A stretch of 24,000 nucleotides of DNA from Treponemataceae bacterium (lineage in GTDB: Bacteria; Spirochaetota; Spirochaetia; Treponematales; Treponemataceae), in assembly GCA_045616125.1 (NCBI GenBank), contig JAZLGC010000002.1, positions 23,000 through 46,999 on the forward strand. The letters are read 5' to 3'. Of this stretch, positions 45 to 8,633 are shown piece after piece. The stretch's first letter is position 1. Every line of letters starts with the position of its first letter. The notes under the pieces were generated by a model, which saw nothing but the letters and a program-made list of their open reading frames with translations, did not search any database and was not told the origin of the DNA. A program made the translations under genes and the position numbers.

Positions 45-1538
45 ATGGGGTATCAGGCTCATACTATACCTATGACAACGCCAGAAACAAAAGTTACCAT
101 TTCCACCGGACTTGGCCCCATAACAGGTCTGGATGCCGGTTCCCATTACCAGTTCCGCGGCATTCCGTATGGGATTGCAAAACGATTTGAATATGCCACC
201 CCGGTGCAGCGCTGGACCGACGCCGGAACACCAGAAGACGTACCCTTTGATGCAACCCGATGGGGAGATACCTGTCCCCAGAAACGCTGCTGGTATGCTC
301 ATCTGGAACAGCCGGAACGAATGTTCTATCACCGGGAATTCCGTGACGGTGTTCCCTACACATACAGCGAAAACTGTCTGAATCTGAACGTGTATATGCC
401 ATCACCTGCGGTATCAGACGCCGCTTCGGCCAACCAGACGGCAACTGATTCGGCCACCCAGACGGCAACTCCCCCGCGAAGTGCCAGACTCCACCCGGTC
501 ATCGTATTCATACACGGCGGTGGCTTTGATTCAGGCGCCAATTATGACAGCGCCATTCACGGAGAACGCTTTGCTGCTGACGGCTATGTCTTTGTCAGCC
601 TTACCTACCGGGTAGGCGTTCTCGGTTATGCCACCCACCCCGAAATAGCCGATGCAAACAACGGCCGTGACGGCAACTTTGGCTTGGATGACCAGTACAC
701 TGCTCTCTGCTGGATTCGCGACCACATTGCAGACTTTTCCGGCGACCCCGACAATATTACGGTCATGGGACAAAGTGCCGGCGCCATCAGCATTCAGTAT
801 CTGTGTTTGAGTAAACGCTGCCAAGGCCTTTTCCAACGGGCATTCATGATGTCAGGCGGCGGTAAGTTTCCTGACTTTGCCCTGCCCCGCACTACCGGCA
901 GCACCCACGAATACTGGCTTGATGTCATGACCACTGCCGGCTGTACCACCTTTGACCAGTTCAAAACCCTGGACATCAAAAAAATCTACGATGCCCTTGA
1001 AACAGTAAAAAGCCGCCGGAAGGACAACACCTACAACACCATGCCTGTTATTGACGGCTACCTTATTGAACAGCCTGTTCAGGAACTGATCCGGCAGCCA
1101 TTGGACATTCCCTACATGGTTACCTACACCAACAACGACATGTTCGCATTCCTCATGGCGCGGATTGGTCATGAATACGCCCGCCATACCGGTGCCTGGC
1201 TTGGTAACTTTGACGTAAACGCTCCCGGTTCTGACAACAACAAAGCCTTTCATTCCTGCGACATCCGCTACTGGCTGGGAACACTGGCAGACAGCCACCG
1301 GCCGTACACAGATTCTGACCGGGAACTTTCTGACCTGTTAATCCGCTATCTTGAAAACTTTGCCACCACGAGTAACCCAAATCAAGGCCCCCATGCCGGG
1401 CTACCCCGCTGGCCCCAATCCACAGCCAAAAGCAGGAAATCACTGCATCTGGTATCCAACACAAAAAAAATCCGCATGACCCATCCCAATAACCTTAAAA
1501 TGCTTTGGAACATGCTTACCAAGGGAGATCCCAAATGA
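45..1538 (+). CDS. Carboxylesterase/lipase, type B family (alpha/beta hydrolase)
   Basis: 497-aa ORF with the oxyanion-hole motif HGGGF (VIVFIHGGGFDSG) and the nucleophile elbow GQSAGA (GxSxG), both typical of PnbA-like type-B carboxylesterases. There is no clear SD before ATG 45, so the in-frame ATG at 72 is an alternative start. Confidence 0.85.
   Translation: MGYQAHTIPMTTPETKVTISTGLGPITGLDAGSHYQFRGIPYGIAKRFEYATPVQRWTDAGTPEDVPFDATRWGDTCPQKRCWYAHLEQPERMFYHREFRDGVPYTYSENCLNLNVYMPSPAVSDAASANQTATDSATQTATPPRSARLHPVIVFIHGGGFDSGANYDSAIHGERFAADGYVFVSLTYRVGVLGYATHPEIADANNGRDGNFGLDDQYTALCWIRDHIADFSGDPDNITVMGQSAGAISIQYLCLSKRCQGLFQRAFMMSGGGKFPDFALPRTTGSTHEYWLDVMTTAGCTTFDQFKTLDIKKIYDALETVKSRRKDNTYNTMPVIDGYLIEQPVQELIRQPLDIPYMVTYTNNDMFAFLMARIGHEYARHTGAWLGNFDVNAPGSDNNKAFHSCDIRYWLGTLADSHRPYTDSDRELSDLLIRYLENFATTSNPNQGPHAGLPRWPQSTAKSRKSLHLVSNTKKIRMTHPNNLKMLWNMLTKGDPK
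425..472 (+). repeat. In-frame 24-bp tandem duplication inside the esterase gene (encodes SANQTATD/SATQTATP)
   Basis: ttcggccaaccagacggcaact (425-446) and ttcggccacccagacggcaact (449-470) differ at one base. The period is 24 nt (8 codons). It sits just upstream of the HGGGF motif in a Thr/Ala/Gln-rich segment. Confidence 0.8.
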
Positions 1539-3898
1539 AATTCAGACATCAATTTGAACTGAAAGAAGCAACCCCTACCTATCGAATCTACAAAACCGAC
1601 GGCATTACCATCCGTCTTGATTTTTTTAACCATATGATCAGGGTAGCCATCCTTCATGACAGCATCAATCTGCTTCCAACCTGGACTGTCCAGCCAAGAC
1701 GCCGGCAGGATCCGGAAACGGGATACGGATTTGTCAACACGCCACAGGCAGGAAGAAACAAGCTGTCCTGTGACGATATGGAACAGCTGCCACCAGAGGT
1801 ACTGACAACAGGAAAAGGACAGGAATCCTTTACCATTGATGATGTCACAATCAGCATCGATTTGTTCAATTTCCGAATGAAATATGAACGAAACGGCAAA
1901 CTGCTGTTTCAGGACCGGGAATACATTGCCTATAATTTTGACGGCGAACTGGGAGATGGCAGCTGTCACTACGTTACCCGTGAGCCTGATGAAGAAATAT
2001 TCGGACTGGGGGATAAAACAGGACCGGTAAACAAAAACAAACGGAGTTACCGTCTTGAAGCAGGAGATGCCATGGGCTTTGATGCACGCTCTTCTGACCC
2101 CTTATACAAACAGCTGCCATTCTACATGTGCCGGAATTCAGCCGGCTGCTATGGCATGTATTATGACACCTACAGCAACGGTACCATGAACTTTGGTGCA
2201 GAAATCAACAATTACTACGCACCGTTCAAAAGCTTCAGCTGCGATGAAGAAAACCTGGTGTATTACGTGATTTTTGGCGATATTCCCCAGATTTTGCAGC
2301 GATTCAGCGCCCTAACCGGACCAGTTGCATTCCCGCCAAAATGGACCTTTGCCTACTGTGGCAGCACCATGAGTTATACTGATGCTCCTGATGCCGATAA
2401 CCAGCTGCGTACCTTCCTGCAGTTATGTCAGAAGCACGGCATTACGCCCGGCGGTTTTTACCTCAGTTCCGGCTATACCCAGATTGGCAAAAAGCGCTAT
2501 GTATTCCACTGGAACACCGACAAGGTACCGTCACCGGAAGGTCTGGCATCGTACTTTGCAGAAAACGGTGTCGATTTTCTTCCGAATGTAAAACCGGCAT
2601 TTCTGGTAAATCATCCCCTGTACAACCAGATTGCAGACAAGGGGTGGTTCCTTCATTACAGTGACGGAACACCTGCCGTGTTCCCCTTCTGGGATGACTA
2701 CGGCAGTTACCTGGACTTTACCAATCCGGATGCCTTTGCATTCTGGTCCGATTGTGTAAAGAGACAGCTTGTAGATAAAGGCTATCTGAATATGTGGAAC
2801 GATAACAACGAGTACGATATCCATGACAAGGCCGTTCTTGCCCACGGGTTCGGAAACGGTCCCGTTCCAGCCCATCGCATCAGACCGCTGTTCAGTTTTT
2901 TAATGACCCTTGCCAGTTGTGAAAGTCAAAATCAGAGCCGCCGCATTTCATCAGTCTCACGCTGCGGCATCGGCGGTCTTAGCCGTATGGCTACTACCTG
3001 GACCGGCGACAACAACACCTGTTTTGATGATTTCAGGTATAACCACCGCATGGCCATGACAATGAGCTTAAGTGGCTTTTACAATTTTGGACAGGATATC
3101 GGCGGCTTTGCCGGTAACCGGCCGGAACCGGAACTGTTCCTCCGCTGGATTCAGTACGGCATCTTTACGCCACGGTTTGTTCTGCACAGCTGGAACAGTG
3201 ACGGCAGTGCTACCATGCCCTGGCTGTATCCGGAGCTGATTCCAACCGTAAAGAACCTGTTTGACCTGCGGAACAGACTGATTCCCTACCTGTACACCCA
3301 GGCCTACGAAAGCGCCAAATCCAACAAGCCCATCATTTATCCGGTATTTCTTGAGCAAAGCAATTATGATACAGAAGCTGATTGTTTTATGTTTGGTAGC
3401 CGTATTCTGGCCGTTCCTGTTTTTGATAAAGGGGTTGAAACCGTAACCGTAACGCTGCCGGACACCGCCGAATCCTGGTATCCCAGCCCTCAGAGCACCA
3501 CCACAGGATCCCTGAGCCTGTCGAAGGGTCCCACCACCATTACACTCCCCGCCCCAACAGATGCAGAGCCCGTATGGTTTGTAAAAGCAGGCAGTGTTCT
3601 TCCGCTGGCATCAGGCACCCCGATTCTCAGAAACCGGTCGCTGGACAACATCACGTTTACTGTCTATCCCCTTACACAGGGAAGTTTTACCGCAACTTAC
3701 CTGGATGATGATGGCGTCAGCTGGCTTACAGAAGACAACCATCAGGTCATCACCTTCACCGTAGATTGTACGGCGGATACGGTAACAGTCCACGTACAAA
3801 GCACCACCGCTTCAGGAACTCCGCTGCCACCCCCTGAACCAGAATCACTGAACCTTGCACTGCACCCCAGCGACCCCCGCAAACTGGTAATTGCCTGA
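1535..3898 (+). CDS. Glycoside hydrolase family 31 (alpha-xylosidase/alpha-glucosidase-like)
   Basis: GH31 signature around the nucleophile Asp (NMWNDNNEY, compare WxDMNE) and the acid/base region (TWTGDNNTCF), plus GQDIGGF. I chose ATG 1535 (MKFRHQ...) over the track start 1505. It has an AAGGGAG SD at 1521-1527 and overlaps the esterase stop as ATGA. Confidence 0.88.
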   Translation: MKFRHQFELKEATPTYRIYKTDGITIRLDFFNHMIRVAILHDSINLLPTWTVQPRRRQDPETGYGFVNTPQAGRNKLSCDDMEQLPPEVLTTGKGQESFTIDDVTISIDLFNFRMKYERNGKLLFQDREYIAYNFDGELGDGSCHYVTREPDEEIFGLGDKTGPVNKNKRSYRLEAGDAMGFDARSSDPLYKQLPFYMCRNSAGCYGMYYDTYSNGTMNFGAEINNYYAPFKSFSCDEENLVYYVIFGDIPQILQRFSALTGPVAFPPKWTFAYCGSTMSYTDAPDADNQLRTFLQLCQKHGITPGGFYLSSGYTQIGKKRYVFHWNTDKVPSPEGLASYFAENGVDFLPNVKPAFLVNHPLYNQIADKGWFLHYSDGTPAVFPFWDDYGSYLDFTNPDAFAFWSDCVKRQLVDKGYLNMWNDNNEYDIHDKAVLAHGFGNGPVPAHRIRPLFSFLMTLASCESQNQSRRISSVSRCGIGGLSRMATTWTGDNNTCFDDFRYNHRMAMTMSLSGFYNFGQDIGGFAGNRPEPELFLRWIQYGIFTPRFVLHSWNSDGSATMPWLYPELIPTVKNLFDLRNRLIPYLYTQAYESAKSNKPIIYPVFLEQSNYDTEADCFMFGSRILAVPVFDKGVETVTVTLPDTAESWYPSPQSTTTGSLSLSKGPTTITLPAPTDAEPVWFVKAGSVLPLASGTPILRNRSLDNITFTVYPLTQGSFTATYLDDDGVSWLTEDNHQVITFTVDCTADTVTVHVQSTTASGTPLPPPEPESLNLALHPSDPRKLVIA

Positions 3899-3914
3899 CA
3901 GTTTCAAGAAAAAG

Positions 3915-4134
3915 GTAGGGTTGTATTGAATACCAATAGAACGTTTTTTGAAAAACCTATCGACGTGCTGATAACGTGCAAAACCGCTCGCTAGCGTCGC
4001 TACAGGCGAAGCCCGGTAAAGAAACTATCGTTCGTCCATGCTCACCGCATGGACGCCGGGCTTCGACAGTTTTTGCACGTTCTCATCCCATCTACCGGTT
4101 TTTCAGTTTCTCATCATTTTCAATACAACCCTAC
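3915..4134. repeat. Copy A of a ~220-bp rod-like imperfect palindromic repeat (MITE-like or structured-RNA-like element)
   Basis: Outer 16-bp perfect inverted repeat gtagggttgtattgaa (3915-3930) / ttcaatacaaccctac (4119-4134). Inner stems are tgaaaaacc/ggtttttca, aacgtgcaaaa (3973-3983)/ttttgcacgtt (4071-4081) and cgaagcccgg/ccgggcttcg. The apical hairpin is tccatgc-tcacc-gcatgga. The core is about 89% identical to 6866-6955. The element fills the whole gap between two convergent stop codons. Confidence 0.85.
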
Positions 4135-4141
4135 GTTTTGT

Positions 4142-5569
4142 TTACCGGCCGCGTGATACCTTCAGTTCAGCGTACAGTTTTTCAAGATTCTTCTTATTCA
4201 GGCTGTAGCAGAAATTCAGCAGGAACCACATAACAGCCAGCACAATGGCAGGTACCAACGTGGCCATGGTATACAGCCGTGAAGTTACTTCAGCAGTCTG
4301 TACCGTAGCATCAACATTATATCCGATTACCGAAAGCAGCACCGGAACACCAACACCAGCCAGCGTCTGTCCCAGCTTACGGGTAAACGAATAAACAGCG
4401 TAACTGGTACCTTCTTCACGACGGCCAGTCTTGTTTTCATGGTAATCAATAACATCCATAACCAGCGCCCACACTTCCAGAATCAGGAATGTCTGACCGG
4501 CGCTTGACAGGAACAGCAGGGCCATGAATACGGTTGAATTTGCTGCCAGCGGAGTAAATCCGATTGCATACATAACAAAACTGATAATTGCGGAAAGAAG
4601 CAGACCAAAAGAACACAGTTCTTTTTTACCCCATTTGCGAACCAGTTTTCCTACAACAGGCAGGAACATGGCCATAGGAACATAGGTACATACGGTTACC
4701 AGACCGTACAGCCCAGGTTTCTGGTAGTAATTCTTGAACAGATAGTTATAGGTTGTCTGGGTGTACATCTGGAACGCAATCAGCAGCATGGAAACCAGAC
4801 ACAGGAAAATAAACGGTGGGTTCTTCAAAAGGTCGCCAACGGTACGGAATACATGCATTTTTGCAGGCTGTCCGTTCTCTGGAATATCCTTATCAAGAAC
4901 AACAATACGTTCCTTTGTCCCCTTAAAATGCAGCCAGTAAATAAGAACGCTGAGCACTGCAATACAGGCTACGGCAACAGTCATCTTGTTTGGATCCAGT
5001 GCTTTTGCCGTGGTACCGTCTGCCAGAGTAACAGTGGTATACACAACCATAGGCAGAACAATCATTGAAGGAATATTACCAAAGCCGGCACCAACAGAAC
5101 GCCATACAGAAAGTGCACTGCGTTCAGCAGGATCATCAGTAATAACAGAAGCAAGGGAACCGAATGGAATATTTACACCGGTATACATCATGCCGTACAG
5201 AATGTAAGTTATGTAGGCAAATACCAGGTAGCCGGAAGGACTCAGGCCCGGAATTTTTACGAACATAAGGACAGCAGAAATGGCCAGAGGAATGGAAGCT
5301 CCCATTACGTAGGGACGGAAGCGGCCATATTTGGTAGGACGCCGGCTGTCAATAAAACCACCCCACATAGGGTCATTAATGGCATCCCAGATACGGGCAA
5401 CCAGCATAAGCATCGTAATTGATGCCAGCGGAATGTGCAGGCAGTCCGTATAGAACATGGTTAAAAACGATGAAATCAACGAAAAGGTCAAAACGCCACC
5501 AAAGTCACCGCATGCGTATGCCATCTTCTCTTTTGTCGTAATTCCCGAAGTCGGGCTCTTTTCAGACAT
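4142..5569 (-). CDS. Glycoside-pentoside-hexuronide (GPH) family sugar:cation symporter (MFS superfamily)
   Basis: Multi-pass membrane protein. The N-terminal region KEKMAYACGDFGG...FLTMFYTD...ARIWDAINDPMWGGFIDSRRPTKYGRFRPY is characteristic of MelB/YicJ/UidB-type GPH transporters. I chose ATG 5569 (MSEKSP), which has SD AAAGGAGAA 6 nt upstream. The track start GTG 5677 would add 36 aa (see findings). Confidence 0.85.
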   Translation of the reverse strand: MSEKSPTSGITTKEKMAYACGDFGGVLTFSLISSFLTMFYTDCLHIPLASITMLMLVARIWDAINDPMWGGFIDSRRPTKYGRFRPYVMGASIPLAISAVLMFVKIPGLSPSGYLVFAYITYILYGMMYTGVNIPFGSLASVITDDPAERSALSVWRSVGAGFGNIPSMIVLPMVVYTTVTLADGTTAKALDPNKMTVAVACIAVLSVLIYWLHFKGTKERIVVLDKDIPENGQPAKMHVFRTVGDLLKNPPFIFLCLVSMLLIAFQMYTQTTYNYLFKNYYQKPGLYGLVTVCTYVPMAMFLPVVGKLVRKWGKKELCSFGLLLSAIISFVMYAIGFTPLAANSTVFMALLFLSSAGQTFLILEVWALVMDVIDYHENKTGRREEGTSYAVYSFTRKLGQTLAGVGVPVLLSVIGYNVDATVQTAEVTSRLYTMATLVPAIVLAVMWFLLNFCYSLNKKNLEKLYAELKVSRGR

Positions 5570-5792
5570 ATAGTTCTCCTTTAAATCTTCCGCGGCAGCG
5601 GTCGCACACGGATGTACGATATCGCAGCTTGCGAAGCAGGATGCATGTGAAAAAATACACGGATGTATATTTTTCACGCCTCCTTATTTAGTATTTTTCA
5701 GCAACAGAATAATTGTACCATGATATTTTAAATCCATGGGAAACAGGTCACTATCAGTAAACAGATGACGCAGTTTGAACTACACTAGTACC

Positions 5793-6791
5793 ATGACCTT
5801 ACAAAATGAATTTCTGCCGTATATCTTACCTTCAAAAGATATGCGTTCCTGCTGCATCGCTGAAAACCGTATCTTCCTCCCCTGGGAAACAGCCAGTCTT
5901 CTGTATATGAATACTCATATACCCTTTGCAAAGCGGCAGGAACTTTTCAAACAACTTGCAGAACACATTGAATCCACAAATCCATCTAAAACAGAGAATG
6001 TTGCATATCCTCATATTTCAGATTTCAATGTACTGAATCAGCTGAAAAATCACATAGCCTGTGAAGAATTTCTTTTGGACAAGTTTTATGACAGCCATGA
6101 AGGCACGTATTCCTATGTAATTCACAACGAAAATGATGATTACCGCGCAGCACGATACGAATACTTCTATTCCACTGCAGAAAAAGCCAAAGTCGATGCA
6201 TTACAGGAATTGGAAAAATACCACAGAAAAGAAAATGGTGAATACGAAACCAACGAAATCCGGATTACCAGGTTTTTCATAGATAAACGTACTACTTTGG
6301 AAGGAATTTTTACACTGAAAGGAGAACTGCAATCCCTCTATTTCTGCGGAGAAAACATCCAGTCAATTCTTCCGGAAAACTTCCAGCGATATTATGACTT
6401 ACCCAATCCAGACTATTTTGCAGAAAAATATGTCCATTTACCCCACCCCTTCCGAGCCGGCGATTTTGTCCGGACCATAGGTGAAAAAGATATTGGCATT
6501 TATACCGGCGACAAAAATGACGAATCGTATCACCAAAATCAAATTCGTCTGAAAAAACTGGCATCAAATCCAAAGCTTATATTTCCTATTGATTTTTCAG
6601 ATATTTCCTGTCGTGTAGAGTACTTCGACCCAAAATTGAAGCTTTTTTCACACAGTCATCCCAGTTTGACCGATCTGGAAAAAGTAGATCTGCCGGAAGA
6701 TTTCAAATACAAAGATTTGTTTGTTACCGCCTCAGAATTACTTCGTAGCGGCGGCTCCATTGAAGCACTGCAGCAGTATCTGGATACATAG
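5793..6791 (+). CDS. Hypothetical protein (orphan, no recognisable domain)
   Basis: Long uninterrupted ORF in an AT-rich islet. The track start at 5775 is TTG; the first ATG is 5793, and neither has a convincing SD. I recognise no catalytic or family motifs. Confidence 0.6.
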   Translation: MTLQNEFLPYILPSKDMRSCCIAENRIFLPWETASLLYMNTHIPFAKRQELFKQLAEHIESTNPSKTENVAYPHISDFNVLNQLKNHIACEEFLLDKFYDSHEGTYSYVIHNENDDYRAARYEYFYSTAEKAKVDALQELEKYHRKENGEYETNEIRITRFFIDKRTTLEGIFTLKGELQSLYFCGENIQSILPENFQRYYDLPNPDYFAEKYVHLPHPFRAGDFVRTIGEKDIGIYTGDKNDESYHQNQIRLKKLASNPKLIFPIDFSDISCRVEYFDPKLKLFSHSHPSLTDLEKVDLPEDFKYKDLFVTASELLRSGGSIEALQQYLDT

Positions 6792-6796
6792 TAAAC

Positions 6797-7018
6797 GTAG
6801 GTATTAATTAACCAGCGCTCAATAAGTATTTGAAAAATCTACCGGCATGCTGGTGACTGAAAAAAACGCTCGATATCGTCGCTATTGGTGAAGCCCGGCA
6901 TAGAAACTATCGTTCGTCCATGCTCACCGCATGGACGCCGGGCTTCAACAATTTTTTTCAGTCCCCATCCTGCCTCCCGATTTTTCAGCTTCCTCAAATA
7001 ACGTTAATTAATACGTAC
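6797..7018. repeat. Copy B of the ~220-bp rod-like imperfect palindromic repeat
   Basis: Outer inverted repeat gtaggtattaattaac (6797-6812) / gttaattaatacgtac (7003-7018) with 1 mismatch. Inner stems are tgaaaaatc/gatttttca, gactgaaaaaaa (6855-6866)/tttttttcagtc (6952-6963) and tgaagcccgg/ccgggcttca. A 45-nt stretch (6902-6946) is identical to 4020-4064. Orientation is the same as copy A. Confidence 0.85.
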
Positions 7019-7063
7019 AACAGTTTTACAACAGAGCGGCAAATTCCTATAAGTAAAGAGAAC

Positions 7064-7612
7064 ATGAAGATATATTTATTAGACAGAAACCCGGAAATGA
7101 TTCTCGAATGGAAGAAACAGTTTAGCAGCACTGAAGACGTTGAAATTGTTCTGGATACATTTGAGCATTTTATGGACACCCATGAAGTACAATGCATTGT
7201 GTCGCCGGCAAATTCCTATGGTATTATGGATGGTGGTTATGATGCCGCCATTACGGATTATTTTGGCATTGATCTGATGCTTGATGTTCAAAATTACATT
7301 TTGCAGAATTATTTTGGGGAACAACCGGTAGGTTCCAGTTTCATCATCGATATCCCCGGAACACGACAAAAACTGATTCACACCCCCACCATGCGGATTC
7401 CCTCACAGATTAAAGACCCGCACATAGTCTATCAGTGTATGAGAACCACCCTTATGGCGGCCATACAGAATAACGTTGAAAGCATAGTCATACCAGCTTT
7501 TGGGGCCGCTACCGGAAAAGTTCCCCGTCCAACAATTGCAAACCGTATGAAAGCCGCCTACAACCAGATACAAAATCCGCCGGTTGAACTTTCTTGGGAT
7601 GTGATTATTTGA
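7064..7612 (+). CDS. Macro-domain protein (ADP-ribose binding / ADP-ribosyl or O-acetyl-ADP-ribose hydrolase family)
   Basis: Matches the macro-domain Nx6GG[VLI]D-type motif (SPANSYGIMDGGYDAAI) and the second glycine-rich loop (IPAFGAATGKVP). Start taken at ATG 7064 (MKIYLLD), which has AAAGAG upstream. The track start 6920 lies inside the palindromic repeat and is rejected. Confidence 0.7.
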   Translation: MKIYLLDRNPEMILEWKKQFSSTEDVEIVLDTFEHFMDTHEVQCIVSPANSYGIMDGGYDAAITDYFGIDLMLDVQNYILQNYFGEQPVGSSFIIDIPGTRQKLIHTPTMRIPSQIKDPHIVYQCMRTTLMAAIQNNVESIVIPAFGAATGKVPRPTIANRMKAAYNQIQNPPVELSWDVII

Positions 7613-7634
7613 AATTAAGAAGGAGCTTATATTC

Positions 7635-8018
7635 ATGCCGGACACAAGACTTGAAGATTTTTTGACAAACAGTTTCTCTGTTACCGGTGCGTACATTGCA
7701 TTGAATACTACGCTAAAGAATTTTTTAGTGCTGGTACACAATAATTCCAGACTGCGCCCTTCATTTCAGAAAGCATCTGAACAATCACTGATTGCAGATA
7801 TACAGTCTATTTCTGACAACAATACCATACTCGGCGACGGCAACAAGCTGATGGAGCAAAAATCCGAATTTCTCAAAATGATCAAGTCCACCCACCACAT
7901 ACATTTTACAGAATCACAGAAATCGTTCTTGATAAAAATCATACAACAGTTTTACGACATCCAGACCAGAGAATTTGAACTACGTCAGCAAGAAAAATCT
8001 GAATTACAAGCACCGTAA
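7635..8018 (+). CDS. Hypothetical protein (127 aa)
   Basis: Strong SD AAGGAG at 7619-7624, 22 nt after the macro-gene stop, so co-oriented and probably co-transcribed. No recognisable domain. Confidence 0.6.
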   Translation: MPDTRLEDFLTNSFSVTGAYIALNTTLKNFLVLVHNNSRLRPSFQKASEQSLIADIQSISDNNTILGDGNKLMEQKSEFLKMIKSTHHIHFTESQKSFLIKIIQQFYDIQTREFELRQQEKSELQAP

Positions 8019-8032
8019 GGAAAATACCTTAA

Positions 8033-8248
8033 ATGACTGAATGGACACTACGGAAACCCGAAAGAGAATTATACCAGCTTGTTCAAAGACTTCGCTTAAC
8101 AGCTGCTACAATCGAAACATTCATGGTAACCGGAGGAAAAGCAGGTCAAGTCCAAAAATACGCATTTAAATCGAGTTTTGTATCCCTTGCGTACGGATCA
8201 TCGGCACAATTTCTTGTAAAAAGGCCGGAATACCCTGAAATTTGCTGA
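8033..8248 (+). CDS. Hypothetical small protein (71 aa)
   Basis: AAGGAAA sits ~10 nt upstream of the ATG, 14 nt after the previous stop. No recognisable domain. The short length makes the call tentative. Confidence 0.4.
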   Translation: MTEWTLRKPERELYQLVQRLRLTAATIETFMVTGGKAGQVQKYAFKSSFVSLAYGSSAQFLVKRPEYPEIC

Positions 8249-8372
8249 AATGTCATGCAATATACTGAAACACGTTAAAAATGCCAAAAGCAGCCAGTTT
8301 GTGCAAAAAATCATCCGAAACATGCCTGAAATACAGGGTGAAAAAGTGTGTTATGTAAAAAAAACGCTATAT

Positions 8373-8408
8373 AAAAAAAGCTCCGAAACCGAAGTCTCGA
8401 AGCTTTTT
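8373..8408. terminator. Bidirectional intrinsic terminator
   Basis: 11-bp stem agctccgaaac (8379-8389) / gtctcgaagct (8394-8404). Read on the minus strand it is GCUUCGAGAC-UUCG-GUUUCGGAGC with a UUCG tetraloop. It is flanked by A7 (8373-8379) and T5 (8404-8408), so it is followed by a U-run on both strands. Confidence 0.8.
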
Positions 8409-8412
8409 GAGG

Positions 8413-8486
8413 TGGACGATGAGAGGATCGAACTCCCGACATTCAGGGTCTAAACGAGAGGCTGGAAGGACTTTAGCTAATCGTCC
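8413..8486 (-). ncRNA. tRNA-like RNA gene (aberrant or degenerate tRNA; UAG at the anticodon position)
   Basis: Minus-strand sequence: GGACGAT-TA-GCTAAAGTCCTTCCAGC-C-TCTCG-TTTAGAC-CCTGA-ATGTC-GGGAG-TTCGATC-CTCTC-ATCGTCC-A(CC). The 7-bp acceptor stem is perfect and the T arm and TTCGATC loop are canonical. The D loop lacks the conserved GG, and the anticodon stem pairs at only 3 of 5 positions. It has its own promoter and terminator. Confidence 0.5.
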
Positions 8487-8542: not shown

Positions 8543-8560
8543 GCGTTACAGCCACGCTAG

Positions 8561-8633
8561 TCGGAACGACAGGATTTGAACCTGCGACATCCTGCTCCCA
8601 AAGCAGGCGCGCTACCAGCTGCGCTACGTTCCG
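8561..8633 (-). tRNA. tRNA-Pro (anticodon UGG)
   Basis: The minus strand folds as a canonical cloverleaf: CGGAACG-TA-GCGC-AGCTGGTA-GCGC-G-CCTGC-TTTGGGA-GCAGG-ATGTC-GCAGG-TTCAAAT-CCTGT-CGTTCCG-A. The anticodon loop is TT-TGG-GA. CCA is not encoded. Confidence 0.93.

Follow-up and report, generated by a model that had tools for sequence, protein, structure and literature searches.

We analysed two long quasi-palindromes, called copy A and copy B here, in a stretch of 24,000 nucleotides (the window hereafter) from an uncultured gut Treponemataceae bacterium (GenBank assembly GCA_045616125.1, contig JAZLGC010000002.1, positions 23,000 to 46,999 of the forward strand). The two copies belong to a small, lineage-restricted and undescribed family of intergenic quasi-palindromic repeats of 195-340 nt. 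Covarying base pairs and retained mismatches are interleaved in their stems, and this pattern argues for selection on a specific single-stranded fold and not for simple homogenisation of a palindrome. As modelled, the fold would be compatible with either RNA or single-stranded DNA (ssDNA), on either strand. The reading that we favour, although only tentatively and at somewhat less than an even chance, is that of a lineage-specific transcribed palindromic repeat of the ERIC, Correia or lacto-2 kind, which would serve as an RNA hairpin at the 3' end of transcripts.

Both copies lie in direct orientation at the places where an earlier note on this DNA, made from the sequence alone, had seen them (Table 1), with a start-to-start offset of 2882 nt. 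In copy A the pairing extends beyond the hairpin to 3910-4139 via AAAA/TTTT. The identity of 45 nt between the copies that the note had reported (4020-4064 and 6902-6946) is exact and maximal. Its estimate of about 89% for the identity of the core was too high; we measured 80% in an ungapped comparison (3947-4110 against 6829-6992, 164 nt) and a mean column identity of 84% over 253 aligned columns. Folding of both strands, which the note had proposed, gives a rod of about 220 nt, that is, a long imperfect hairpin, for each copy and on either strand. The RNA minimum free energy (MFE) is -90.7 kcal/mol on the plus strand and -102.9 kcal/mol on the minus strand for copy A, and -86.6 and -93.0 kcal/mol, respectively, for copy B. 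The corresponding z-scores range from -8.4 to -10.0 on either strand, and 0/200 dinucleotide shuffles were as stable (shuffle means from -45 to -59). Folds calculated with DNA parameters are equally significant (z = -10.9 and -11.6).

At least eight copies of the family, at no fewer than four loci, were found in three genomes, which represent two gut Treponemataceae species. A scan of genomes, look-ups of protein-anchored contigs and an nhmmer profile gave six further copies, which come only from two related Treponemataceae metagenome-assembled genomes (MAGs), JAZLJW01 and JAZLFX01. These copies can be seen in Table 1 along with half of another allele at the place of copy A (site A; the place of copy B is site B). 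Since the pattern of the genome scan required a terminal hairpin that is absent in two members, both the copy number and the taxonomic range are lower bounds. The arms of the copies fall into four lineages, namely A (copy A and L011b), B (copy B and L011c), C (L014) and D (L024), and they are 40-60% diverged between lineages.

The changes in these arms are correlated. In the full-length alignment of three lineages, 97.1% of the cells of 71 pairs are paired and 20 pairs have changed on both sides, compared to 9.0 +/- 2.0 in shuffled controls (0/500) and 1-4 when partners were slid; on the minus strand the full-length alignment has 73 pairs and 21 double-sided changes. The core alignment, consisting of six sequences from all four lineages and scored over the whole rod including mismatch positions, has double-sided changes in 19/59 pairs compared to 9.0 +/- 1.7 in shuffled controls (0/500) and 0-3 with slid partners. 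Overall, the slid-partner controls gave 0-5 such changes. The correlated arm changes claimed in the note are hence seen beyond both kinds of control and in four arm lineages (19-21 double-sided pairs), and uncorrelated substitution of the arms can be set aside. Among the segments it had quoted, the middle stem aacgtgcaaaa/ttttgcacgtt of copy A versus gactgaaaaaaa/tttttttcagtc of copy B, and tgaaaaaCc/gGtttttca versus tgaaaaaTc/gAtttttca, are present and complementary. The basal-stem segments are also present and complementary as quoted, although the basal stem of copy B has one G.G mismatch (gtaG versus gtaC). In a hand-curated arm matrix, complementarity of the imperfect stem to its own arm is 19/26 in every lineage versus 7-14/26 across lineages, and that of the basal stem is 14-16/16 versus 0-10. 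The true arm pairing is the best of 24 permutations, with a value of 189 versus 166 for the next.

Positions that do not pair are retained as well. Of the 26 positions of the imperfect stem, exactly 7 are non-Watson-Crick in each lineage (in copy A, 19/26 positions are Watson-Crick and the 7 mismatches are of fixed type); stem positions 1, 4 and 11 are mismatched in 4/4 lineages and positions 2, 3 and 9 in 3/4, and four core positions are non-canonical in 6/6 sequences. All 28 mismatches of the imperfect stem are either Y.Y (24) or A.C (4) on the plus strand, which is equal to R.R or G.U on the minus strand, and the opposite kind does not occur (0). The lineage-specific mismatches D14, D20, C8 and C19 are likewise T.C. 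Covarying pairs at stem positions 6-8 and 12-14 are interleaved with the retained mismatches 4, 9, 11 and 15.

This interleaving bears directly on a rival that we regard as rather unlikely, in which the element is a non-autonomous mobile or recombinogenic palindrome acting as DNA, similar to MITEs (miniature transposable elements with inverted repeats), REPINs or PATEs. Such an element would form an ssDNA hairpin or cruciform, would depend on a transposase or recombinase encoded elsewhere, and would owe the complementarity of its arms largely to arm-to-arm gene conversion that goes with inversion, as in other large inverted repeats, and not to selection on an RNA. The basal and middle stems are indeed perfectly complementary, as conversion would give, ssDNA folds reach z of about -11, and strand-specific mismatches are also a trait of ssDNA recombination sites such as attC. 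However, the mismatches are spaced 1-3 nt among the covarying pairs, and arm-to-arm conversion tracts would erase mismatches interleaved in this way; a selected single-stranded fold predicts this pattern, and simple conversion between the arms does not.

Rearrangement of the DNA copies is itself observed. In L009 the A right arm, as its reverse complement, is joined to the GH31 flank at a junction within a 16-bp stem; an assembly artefact was rejected for this junction, as the common repeat is just 16 bp and too short for k>=21. The orthologue in L024 is flipped relative to GH31 and GPH (nhmmer 122 bits on the GPH-carrying strand, opposite to the window). Besides this inversion in situ at site A, there are arm-swapped chimeras, with L011a consisting of a B-like left arm and the A right arm and L031x of a C left arm and a B right arm. 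In L011 an A-type copy (L011b) forms a tandem with copy B and adjoins exactly its 5' end (...CCCTAC followed directly by GTATTAATTAAC...), where the window has GTAG only; the basal stem of L011b has three mismatches, and this copy appears to be decaying. Arm-to-arm DNA recombination is active in the family and could explain part of the arm concordance. In addition, because the TD-2-like module described below is absent in both window copies and present, at 99% identity, in both syntenic MAG copies, the 45-nt identity of A and B is probably due in part to exchange between them. The proposal of selection on the fold made in the note therefore holds and is strengthened by the correlated arms and conserved mismatches, but it is qualified by two chimeras that lack the rod and by an inversion in situ that could explain part of the concordance.

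Several loci are occupied, and no target-site duplication (direct repeats) was found at the junctions of copy A, copy B, L011b, L024 and L031x, as in the IS200/IS605 and IS110 families, which would also suit a mobile DNA element. So would the ends, which are GTAGG...CCTAC or GTAC...GTAC; REP heads begin with GTAG. Against it, the terminal sequences vary by lineage and the C-type ends are unrelated, unlike terminal inverted repeats bound by a transposase. The copy number appears to be low, no transposase or recombinase was found in the 24-kb window or the fetched flanks, and the tandem copy of A type differs by about 5% from the one at site A, so that it is not a recent transposition. The outer stems travel with the element: site B of L011 has an A-type basal stem, and the L031 locus has arms of the B and C types. 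The possibility, raised in the note, that the outer arms are unrelated local terminators was rejected for this reason.

Since both orientations of site A are found among close genomes, even within the sample of one MAG (L009 versus L011), and the related species carries the flipped orientation, we also considered an invertible DNA switch (inverton). In such a switch the arms would be the inverted repeats, the asymmetric centre would be the payload, and a flip would alter expression of the flanking genes. We consider this very improbable. Although both orientations occur among strains and species, neither a promoter in the centre nor a recombinase gene nearby was found, and a conserved centre with variable repeats is the reverse of known inverton families. 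Moreover, L009 differs from L011a by a single-nucleotide polymorphism, which suggests polymorphism between different strains and not one flipping clone. A hairpin-telomere relic was rejected, since the centre is asymmetric.

The evidence on the strand, for which the note had proposed a check on G:U pairs, is divided. The minus strand is favoured by energies and by G.U pairs: its MFE is lower in 5/6 copies, its alifold energy is -83.1 versus -72.5 kcal/mol for the plus strand, and the plus-strand core has zero G.U pairs, whereas about five independent cases of A.C on the plus strand are G.U on the minus strand, a ratio of about five to one favouring minus. These cases include two recent single substitutions (copy B to L011c and copy A to L011b) that create minus-strand G.U pairs. 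On the other hand, the plus strand is favoured by context, as the upstream gene is co-directional with it at site B, L014 and L031x, and by the TD-2 module, which matches the plus strand.

The same observations enter into a further rival, which we find improbable: a free-standing, trans-acting structured noncoding RNA (ncRNA), probably from the minus strand, whose rod scaffold with purine-purine internal loops would bind a protein, and whose full-length copies would carry TD-2-type hairpins with GGA loops. Apart from the greater stability of the minus strand and the recent G.U substitutions, the mismatches on this strand are G.A, A.G and G.G together with G.U wobbles, the loop and bulge sequences are conserved, and the architecture is modular. 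The A-GGA loop letters of the TD-2 module (41.7 bits, E = 4e-5) also resemble the CsrA SELEX consensus RUACARGGAUGU (PMC7652899). However, no promoter-like site was found by scan, TD-2 matches the plus and not the minus strand, and the window copies are without TD-2 and have the apex loop AGAAAC where the other copies have GGAAAC. The elements also abut stop codons like passengers of 3' untranslated regions (3'-UTRs) and flip orientation relative to their neighbours, and two copies are chimeric.

The anatomy of the element is that of a conserved, asymmetric centre with flanking arms of about 90 nt. Its conserved parts are the 9-bp stem GAAGCCCGG/CCGGGCTTC and the loop enclosed by it (YRWRGAAACTWT...), which contains GRAAACTWT; the one-sided bulge with its CGTCGCT end; an A-run and T-run; and the stem TGAAAAAYC/GRTTTTTCA. 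The variable parts are the 26-position imperfect (middle) stem and the basal stem of 14-19 bp. A 23-nt terminal hairpin (CGTCCATGC-TSACC-GCATGGACG) is optional, and since it is missing in L024 and L031x, the apex that the note had called invariant is not so across the family. Also optional is an insert of 77-103 nt with three hairpins, which is found in the bulge of L011a, L011c, L014 and L031x. It scores 41.7 and 40.8 bits against Rfam TD-2 (RF03162), below the gathering threshold of 48.7, with E = 4e-5 in a search of 361 nt. Window copies A and B have no TD-2 match, either at gathering threshold or at E<=10. TD-2 is a multi-copy motif of Treponema denticola with no assigned function (PMC1950547). 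The conserved loop letters of the module, AuGGAu and AcGgAU, resemble GGA hairpin sites of CsrA type, and no paper in the library that we searched ties TD-2 to CsrA. A further possibility, which we think more doubtful than the free-standing RNA, is a new class of rod-shaped modular ncRNA working as a 3'-UTR cassette that titrates or recruits a protein. A covarying scaffold with purine-purine internal loops would bear plug-in hairpins, namely the 23-nt terminal hairpin and hairpins of TD-2 type with CsrA-site-like loops (CAUGGAUG, CACGGAUG). Inversion in situ would then decide which of the two convergent mRNAs carries the active strand, and the TD-1 and TD-2 motifs would be given a function.

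Loops that resemble CsrA sites are found in the window between the two copies. At 5602-5683 (+), in the intergenic stretch bounded by the starts of the GPH gene (5569) and the orphan gene (5793), there are two hairpins, each with a CACGGATG loop, at 5607-5614 and 5658-5665. These are the sole two CANGGATG sites in the window, with CAGGATG between them, and the fold of this region has z = -2.0. In this region AUACACGGAUGU matches 11/12 positions of the CsrA SELEX consensus, in which the GGA lies within a hairpin loop (PMC7652899). The orthologous L011:1869-1950 gives 31.4 bits against Rfam TD-2.

The family has features in common with several known systems and differs from each of them in others. 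ERIC/IRU elements are also imperfect intergenic palindromes beside gene ends, occur in either orientation, and have size variants that arise by insertions at fixed internal sites; they are proposed to act as RNA hairpins in co-transcripts. However, no similarity to the 127-bp ERIC consensus was found, as blastn gave no match in 5,426 E. coli genomes, and the Treponema element is about twice as long, is limited to a few Treponemataceae, and has diverging arms around a conserved centre. Correia/NEMIS and other MITEs are likewise short non-coding intergenic palindromes with internal-deletion variants and possible long RNA hairpins, and in Neisseria the hairpins of Correia transcripts are processed and affect expression of neighbouring genes. 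MITEs differ in having conserved terminal inverted repeats and target-site duplications, whereas the termini of this family vary: types A, B and D share only GTAGG or GTACG tips while the remaining basal stem differs, and type C (L014) is unrelated. REPs and REPINs are similar as hairpin-forming intergenic repeats that are tandem or clustered and change orientation in situ, and the ends of the element resemble the GTAG...CTAC head of REPs. But REPs (20-40 nt) and REPINs (about 100 nt) are highly similar to one another and mobilised by RAYT into tens to hundreds of copies; here we see 195-340 nt, diverged arms and at least eight copies. Integron attC sites share conservation of structure over sequence, imperfect arms whose fixed extrahelical or mismatched positions make them strand-specific, and a variable terminal structure, and Treponema is known to carry integrons. 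They measure 57-141 nt, have RYYYAAC/GTTRRRY boxes at their base, and are found in cassette arrays adjoining intI. An attC site was rejected here: the boxes are absent, with GTAGG...CCTAC or GTAC at the base, the element measures about 220 nt, and it lies among housekeeping genes (GH31, GPH, macro-domain) with no integrase.

Among RNA motifs, TD-2 and TD-1 (clan CL00124) are also Treponema-specific, multi-copy and intergenic, and a TD-2-like module is embedded in four members. Nevertheless, the long hairpin itself does not match them, the module falls below the TD-2 threshold, and three consecutive hairpins with AUGGAU and ACGGAU loops at 48.7 bits or more were not found. The lacto-2 RNA motif (Weinberg 2007) gives an overall picture that is alike, but it belongs to Firmicutes and has hundreds of copies compared to the at least eight here, and there is no Rfam match to lacto-2. 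More generally, covariation together with variable-length or modular stems, which are general criteria for structured RNAs (PMC1950547), is found in this family.

The reading that we favour, a transcribed intergenic repeat that would form an RNA hairpin at the 3' end of transcripts, draws on the position of the elements relative to genes. Copy A occupies the entire gap that separates the stop codons of two convergent genes, GH31 (3896-3898) and GPH (4142-4144). Copy B begins 5 nt past the stop of the orphan gene (6791), and 45 nt separate its end at 7018 from the ATG of the macro-domain gene (7064-7066), in agreement with the 46-nt distance given in the note. Because the elements start 2-25 nt 3' of stop codons, we infer that each would form the 3' end of transcripts from the gene or genes that adjoin it. 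There it may work in cis, folded into a long and imperfect RNA hairpin, either as a terminator, a protective (stabilising) structure at the 3' end, or an insulator between transcription units. At the convergent GH31/GPH site, bordered by AAAAAG...GTTTTG, the element is the sole structure present, with T-runs on both strands. Selection would keep both the pairing and the internal loops, which are presumably a surface for protein contact, while the DNA copies are reshuffled by recombination (inversion in situ, arm swapping and tandem insertion).

A number of points weigh against this reading. The evidence on the strand conflicts, and the ssDNA folds are as significant as the RNA folds. There are only four independent arm lineages. 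Of the eight full copies, two (L011a and L031x) have arms that are not complementary and are rodless, with z = -6.1 and -4.0 versus -10.6 for the matched L011c, so that the fold is dispensable at least transiently. A consensus scan found no sigma-70-like promoter and no canonical or intrinsic terminator in or beside either copy, so that copy B is not supported as the source of a promoter or terminator that the note had suggested. A canonical terminator, that is, a short G+C-rich stem-loop followed by a T-run, was not found by scan within the elements, although T-runs border both copy A and its orthologue in L024 on both strands, and these elements are the sole structure between convergent stops. 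A plain terminator would also need no conserved apex loop, bulge or mismatch pattern. Two other candidates were rejected: a promoter in the arms, as none was found by scan, and a small open reading frame (ORF) inside the element, as such ORFs have 2-7 codons only and are not conserved. The listed ORF 6920-7612 is a mere upstream extension of the macro-domain ORF into the terminal hairpin of copy B.

Searches outside the family gave the following. The genome scan with the terminal-hairpin pattern returned 11 loci, among which only those of JAZLJW01 are homologous; a metagenome scan with this pattern gave one chance match, within a gene, and two IMG/VR pattern scans gave chance matches only, in unrelated and mostly high-GC contigs. 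Beyond the copies in Table 1, the profile has no match in 256 kb of fetched sequence. No element is present at the loci of orphan-gene homologues (L016, L032 and L033) or of GPH homologues (L025-L030 and L034). Rfam 15 has no match over either copy at gathering threshold and none at E<=10 in window 3800-7200, and blastn against phages and plasmids, as against the E. coli genomes, found nothing. At L030, from a MAG in which GPH is divergent from esterase-GH31 and not convergent, an ordinary terminator-like hairpin follows GPH. At L008:100-220 in Treponema sp. MAG JAISMC01 there is a GC-rich palindrome (GGCGTCCATGCCGCCGGCATGGACGCC) whose right half is partly repeated (GGCGGCATGGACGCC) about 70 nt further downstream. 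This palindrome has only the hairpin stem in common with the terminal hairpin of the family, the family profile gives it 9 bits and no match, and it is probably unrelated.

Table 1 Coordinates of the repeats and their parts. Positions are those of the window unless preceded by a locus label.
Feature	Position	Strand	Remarks
Copy A, whole quasi-palindrome	3915..4134	+	nhmmer 186 bits on + strand
Copy A, basal stem, 5' arm GTAGGGTTGTATTGAA	3915..3930	+	16/16 paired with 4119-4134 (TTCAATACAACCCTAC)
Copy A, basal stem, 3' arm TTCAATACAACCCTAC	4119..4134	+	
Copy A, anchor stem (TGAAAAACC) and 26-nt imperfect/middle stem, 5' arm	3949..3983	+	partner 4071-4105
Copy A, imperfect/middle and anchor stem, 3' arm	4071..4105	+	pyrimidine-rich
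Copy A, one-sided 18-nt bulge CCGCTCGCTAGCGTCGCT	3984..4001	+	site of TD-2-like module in MAG copies
Copy A, apical domain	4008..4064	+	9-bp stem GAAGCCCGG/CCGGGCTTC (4008-4016, 4056-4064)
Copy A, apical 16-nt loop TAAAGAAACTATCGTT	4017-4032	+	
Copy A, terminal hairpin CGTCCATGC-TCACC-GCATGGACG	4033-4055	+	
Copy B, whole quasi-palindrome	6797..7018	+	nhmmer 185.5 bits on + strand
Copy B, basal stem, 5' arm GTAGGTATTAATTAAC	6797..6812	+	15/16 paired with 7003-7018
Copy B, basal stem, 3' arm GTTAATTAATACGTAC	7003..7018	+	
Copy B, anchor and imperfect/middle stem, 5' arm	6831..6866	+	partner 6953-6987
Copy B, imperfect/middle and anchor stem, 3' arm	6953..6987	+	
Copy B, one-sided bulge CGCTCGATATCGTCGCT	6867..6883	+	
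Copy B, apical domain	6890..6946	+	stem 6890-6898/6938-6946, loop 6899-6914, terminal hairpin 6915-6937
L011a	L011:85-401		MAG site A
L011b	L011:3065-3285		A-type copy, tandem, immediately 5' of copy B
L011c	L011:3282-3602		site B
L014	L014:5999-6336	-	third locus
L031x	L031:575-872	-	fourth locus
L024	L024:11409-11602		site A, related species (GCA_045616005.1; GPH protein 85% identical)
L009			half of another site-A allele
TD-2-like module	L011:176-262		
TD-2-like module	L011:3374-3460		
TD-2-like module	L014:6161-6244	-	
TD-2-like module	L031 ~700-790	-	

The window is a segment of a bacterial chromosome, taken from an NCBI contig of 56,893 nt, and its DNA is 95-97% identical to MAG JAZLJW01 ('Treponemataceae bacterium SGB_3950'). 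The gene order is carboxylesterase, GH31, copy A, GPH transporter (minus strand), orphan gene, copy B, macro-domain gene, tRNAs, phospholipid-synthesis genes, HtrA and a V-type ATPase operon. The segment between the copies (4142-6791, 2650 nt) is not the unit that the note had proposed to look for in related genomes, and a mobile unit was rejected on the arrangement in L024. There, GPH and copy A are present, neither the orphan gene nor copy B is, the macro-domain gene is missing together with the small ORFs, and a VTT gene, tRNA-Pro and two tRNA-Val genes are directly adjacent to GPH.

The difference between the two species covers about 5725-8412 of the window compared to L024:9432-10001. The related species lacks the orphan gene and copy B as well as the macro-domain gene and three small ORFs of 127, 71 and 67 aa, and its counterpart region has tRNA-Pro and two tRNA-Val(tac) genes. 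The window retains tRNA-Pro (8560-8633) and a tRNA-like sequence at 8413-8486, whose 3' half is that of tRNA-Val with an altered anticodon arm (Rfam 33.9 bits; no call by ARAGORN). Judged from this arrangement, the stretch at about 5725-8412 resembles a small islet that became integrated at a tRNA-Val gene; no integrase was seen. The macro-domain protein (7064-7612) has a weak DarG-like match in PADLOC (E = 0.0014, 16 bits); no DarT-like partner is evident beside its gene, and the adjoining small ORFs fall into no family. Apart from those in the two Treponemataceae MAGs, the closest homologues of the GPH (77%) and GH31 (about 60-65%) proteins of window 45-5569 are largely from MAGs of Lachnospiraceae and other Firmicutes, which suggests that the carboxylesterase-GH31-GPH sugar-utilisation cluster was horizontally acquired.

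If the favoured reading of a transcribed repeat is true, an uncultured lineage of gut spirochaetes would have a new candidate structured element in this family. The case for selection on a single-stranded fold would be unusually clean, since the covarying pairs are interleaved with conserved non-canonical positions. The narrow distribution of the family limits its practical impact. The TD-2 motif, known since 2007, behaves here as an optional module in a larger structure, which is a new clue to it. Together with inversion and arm swapping, the family may offer a compact natural system for separating selection on a fold from the concerted evolution of inverted repeats at the DNA level.

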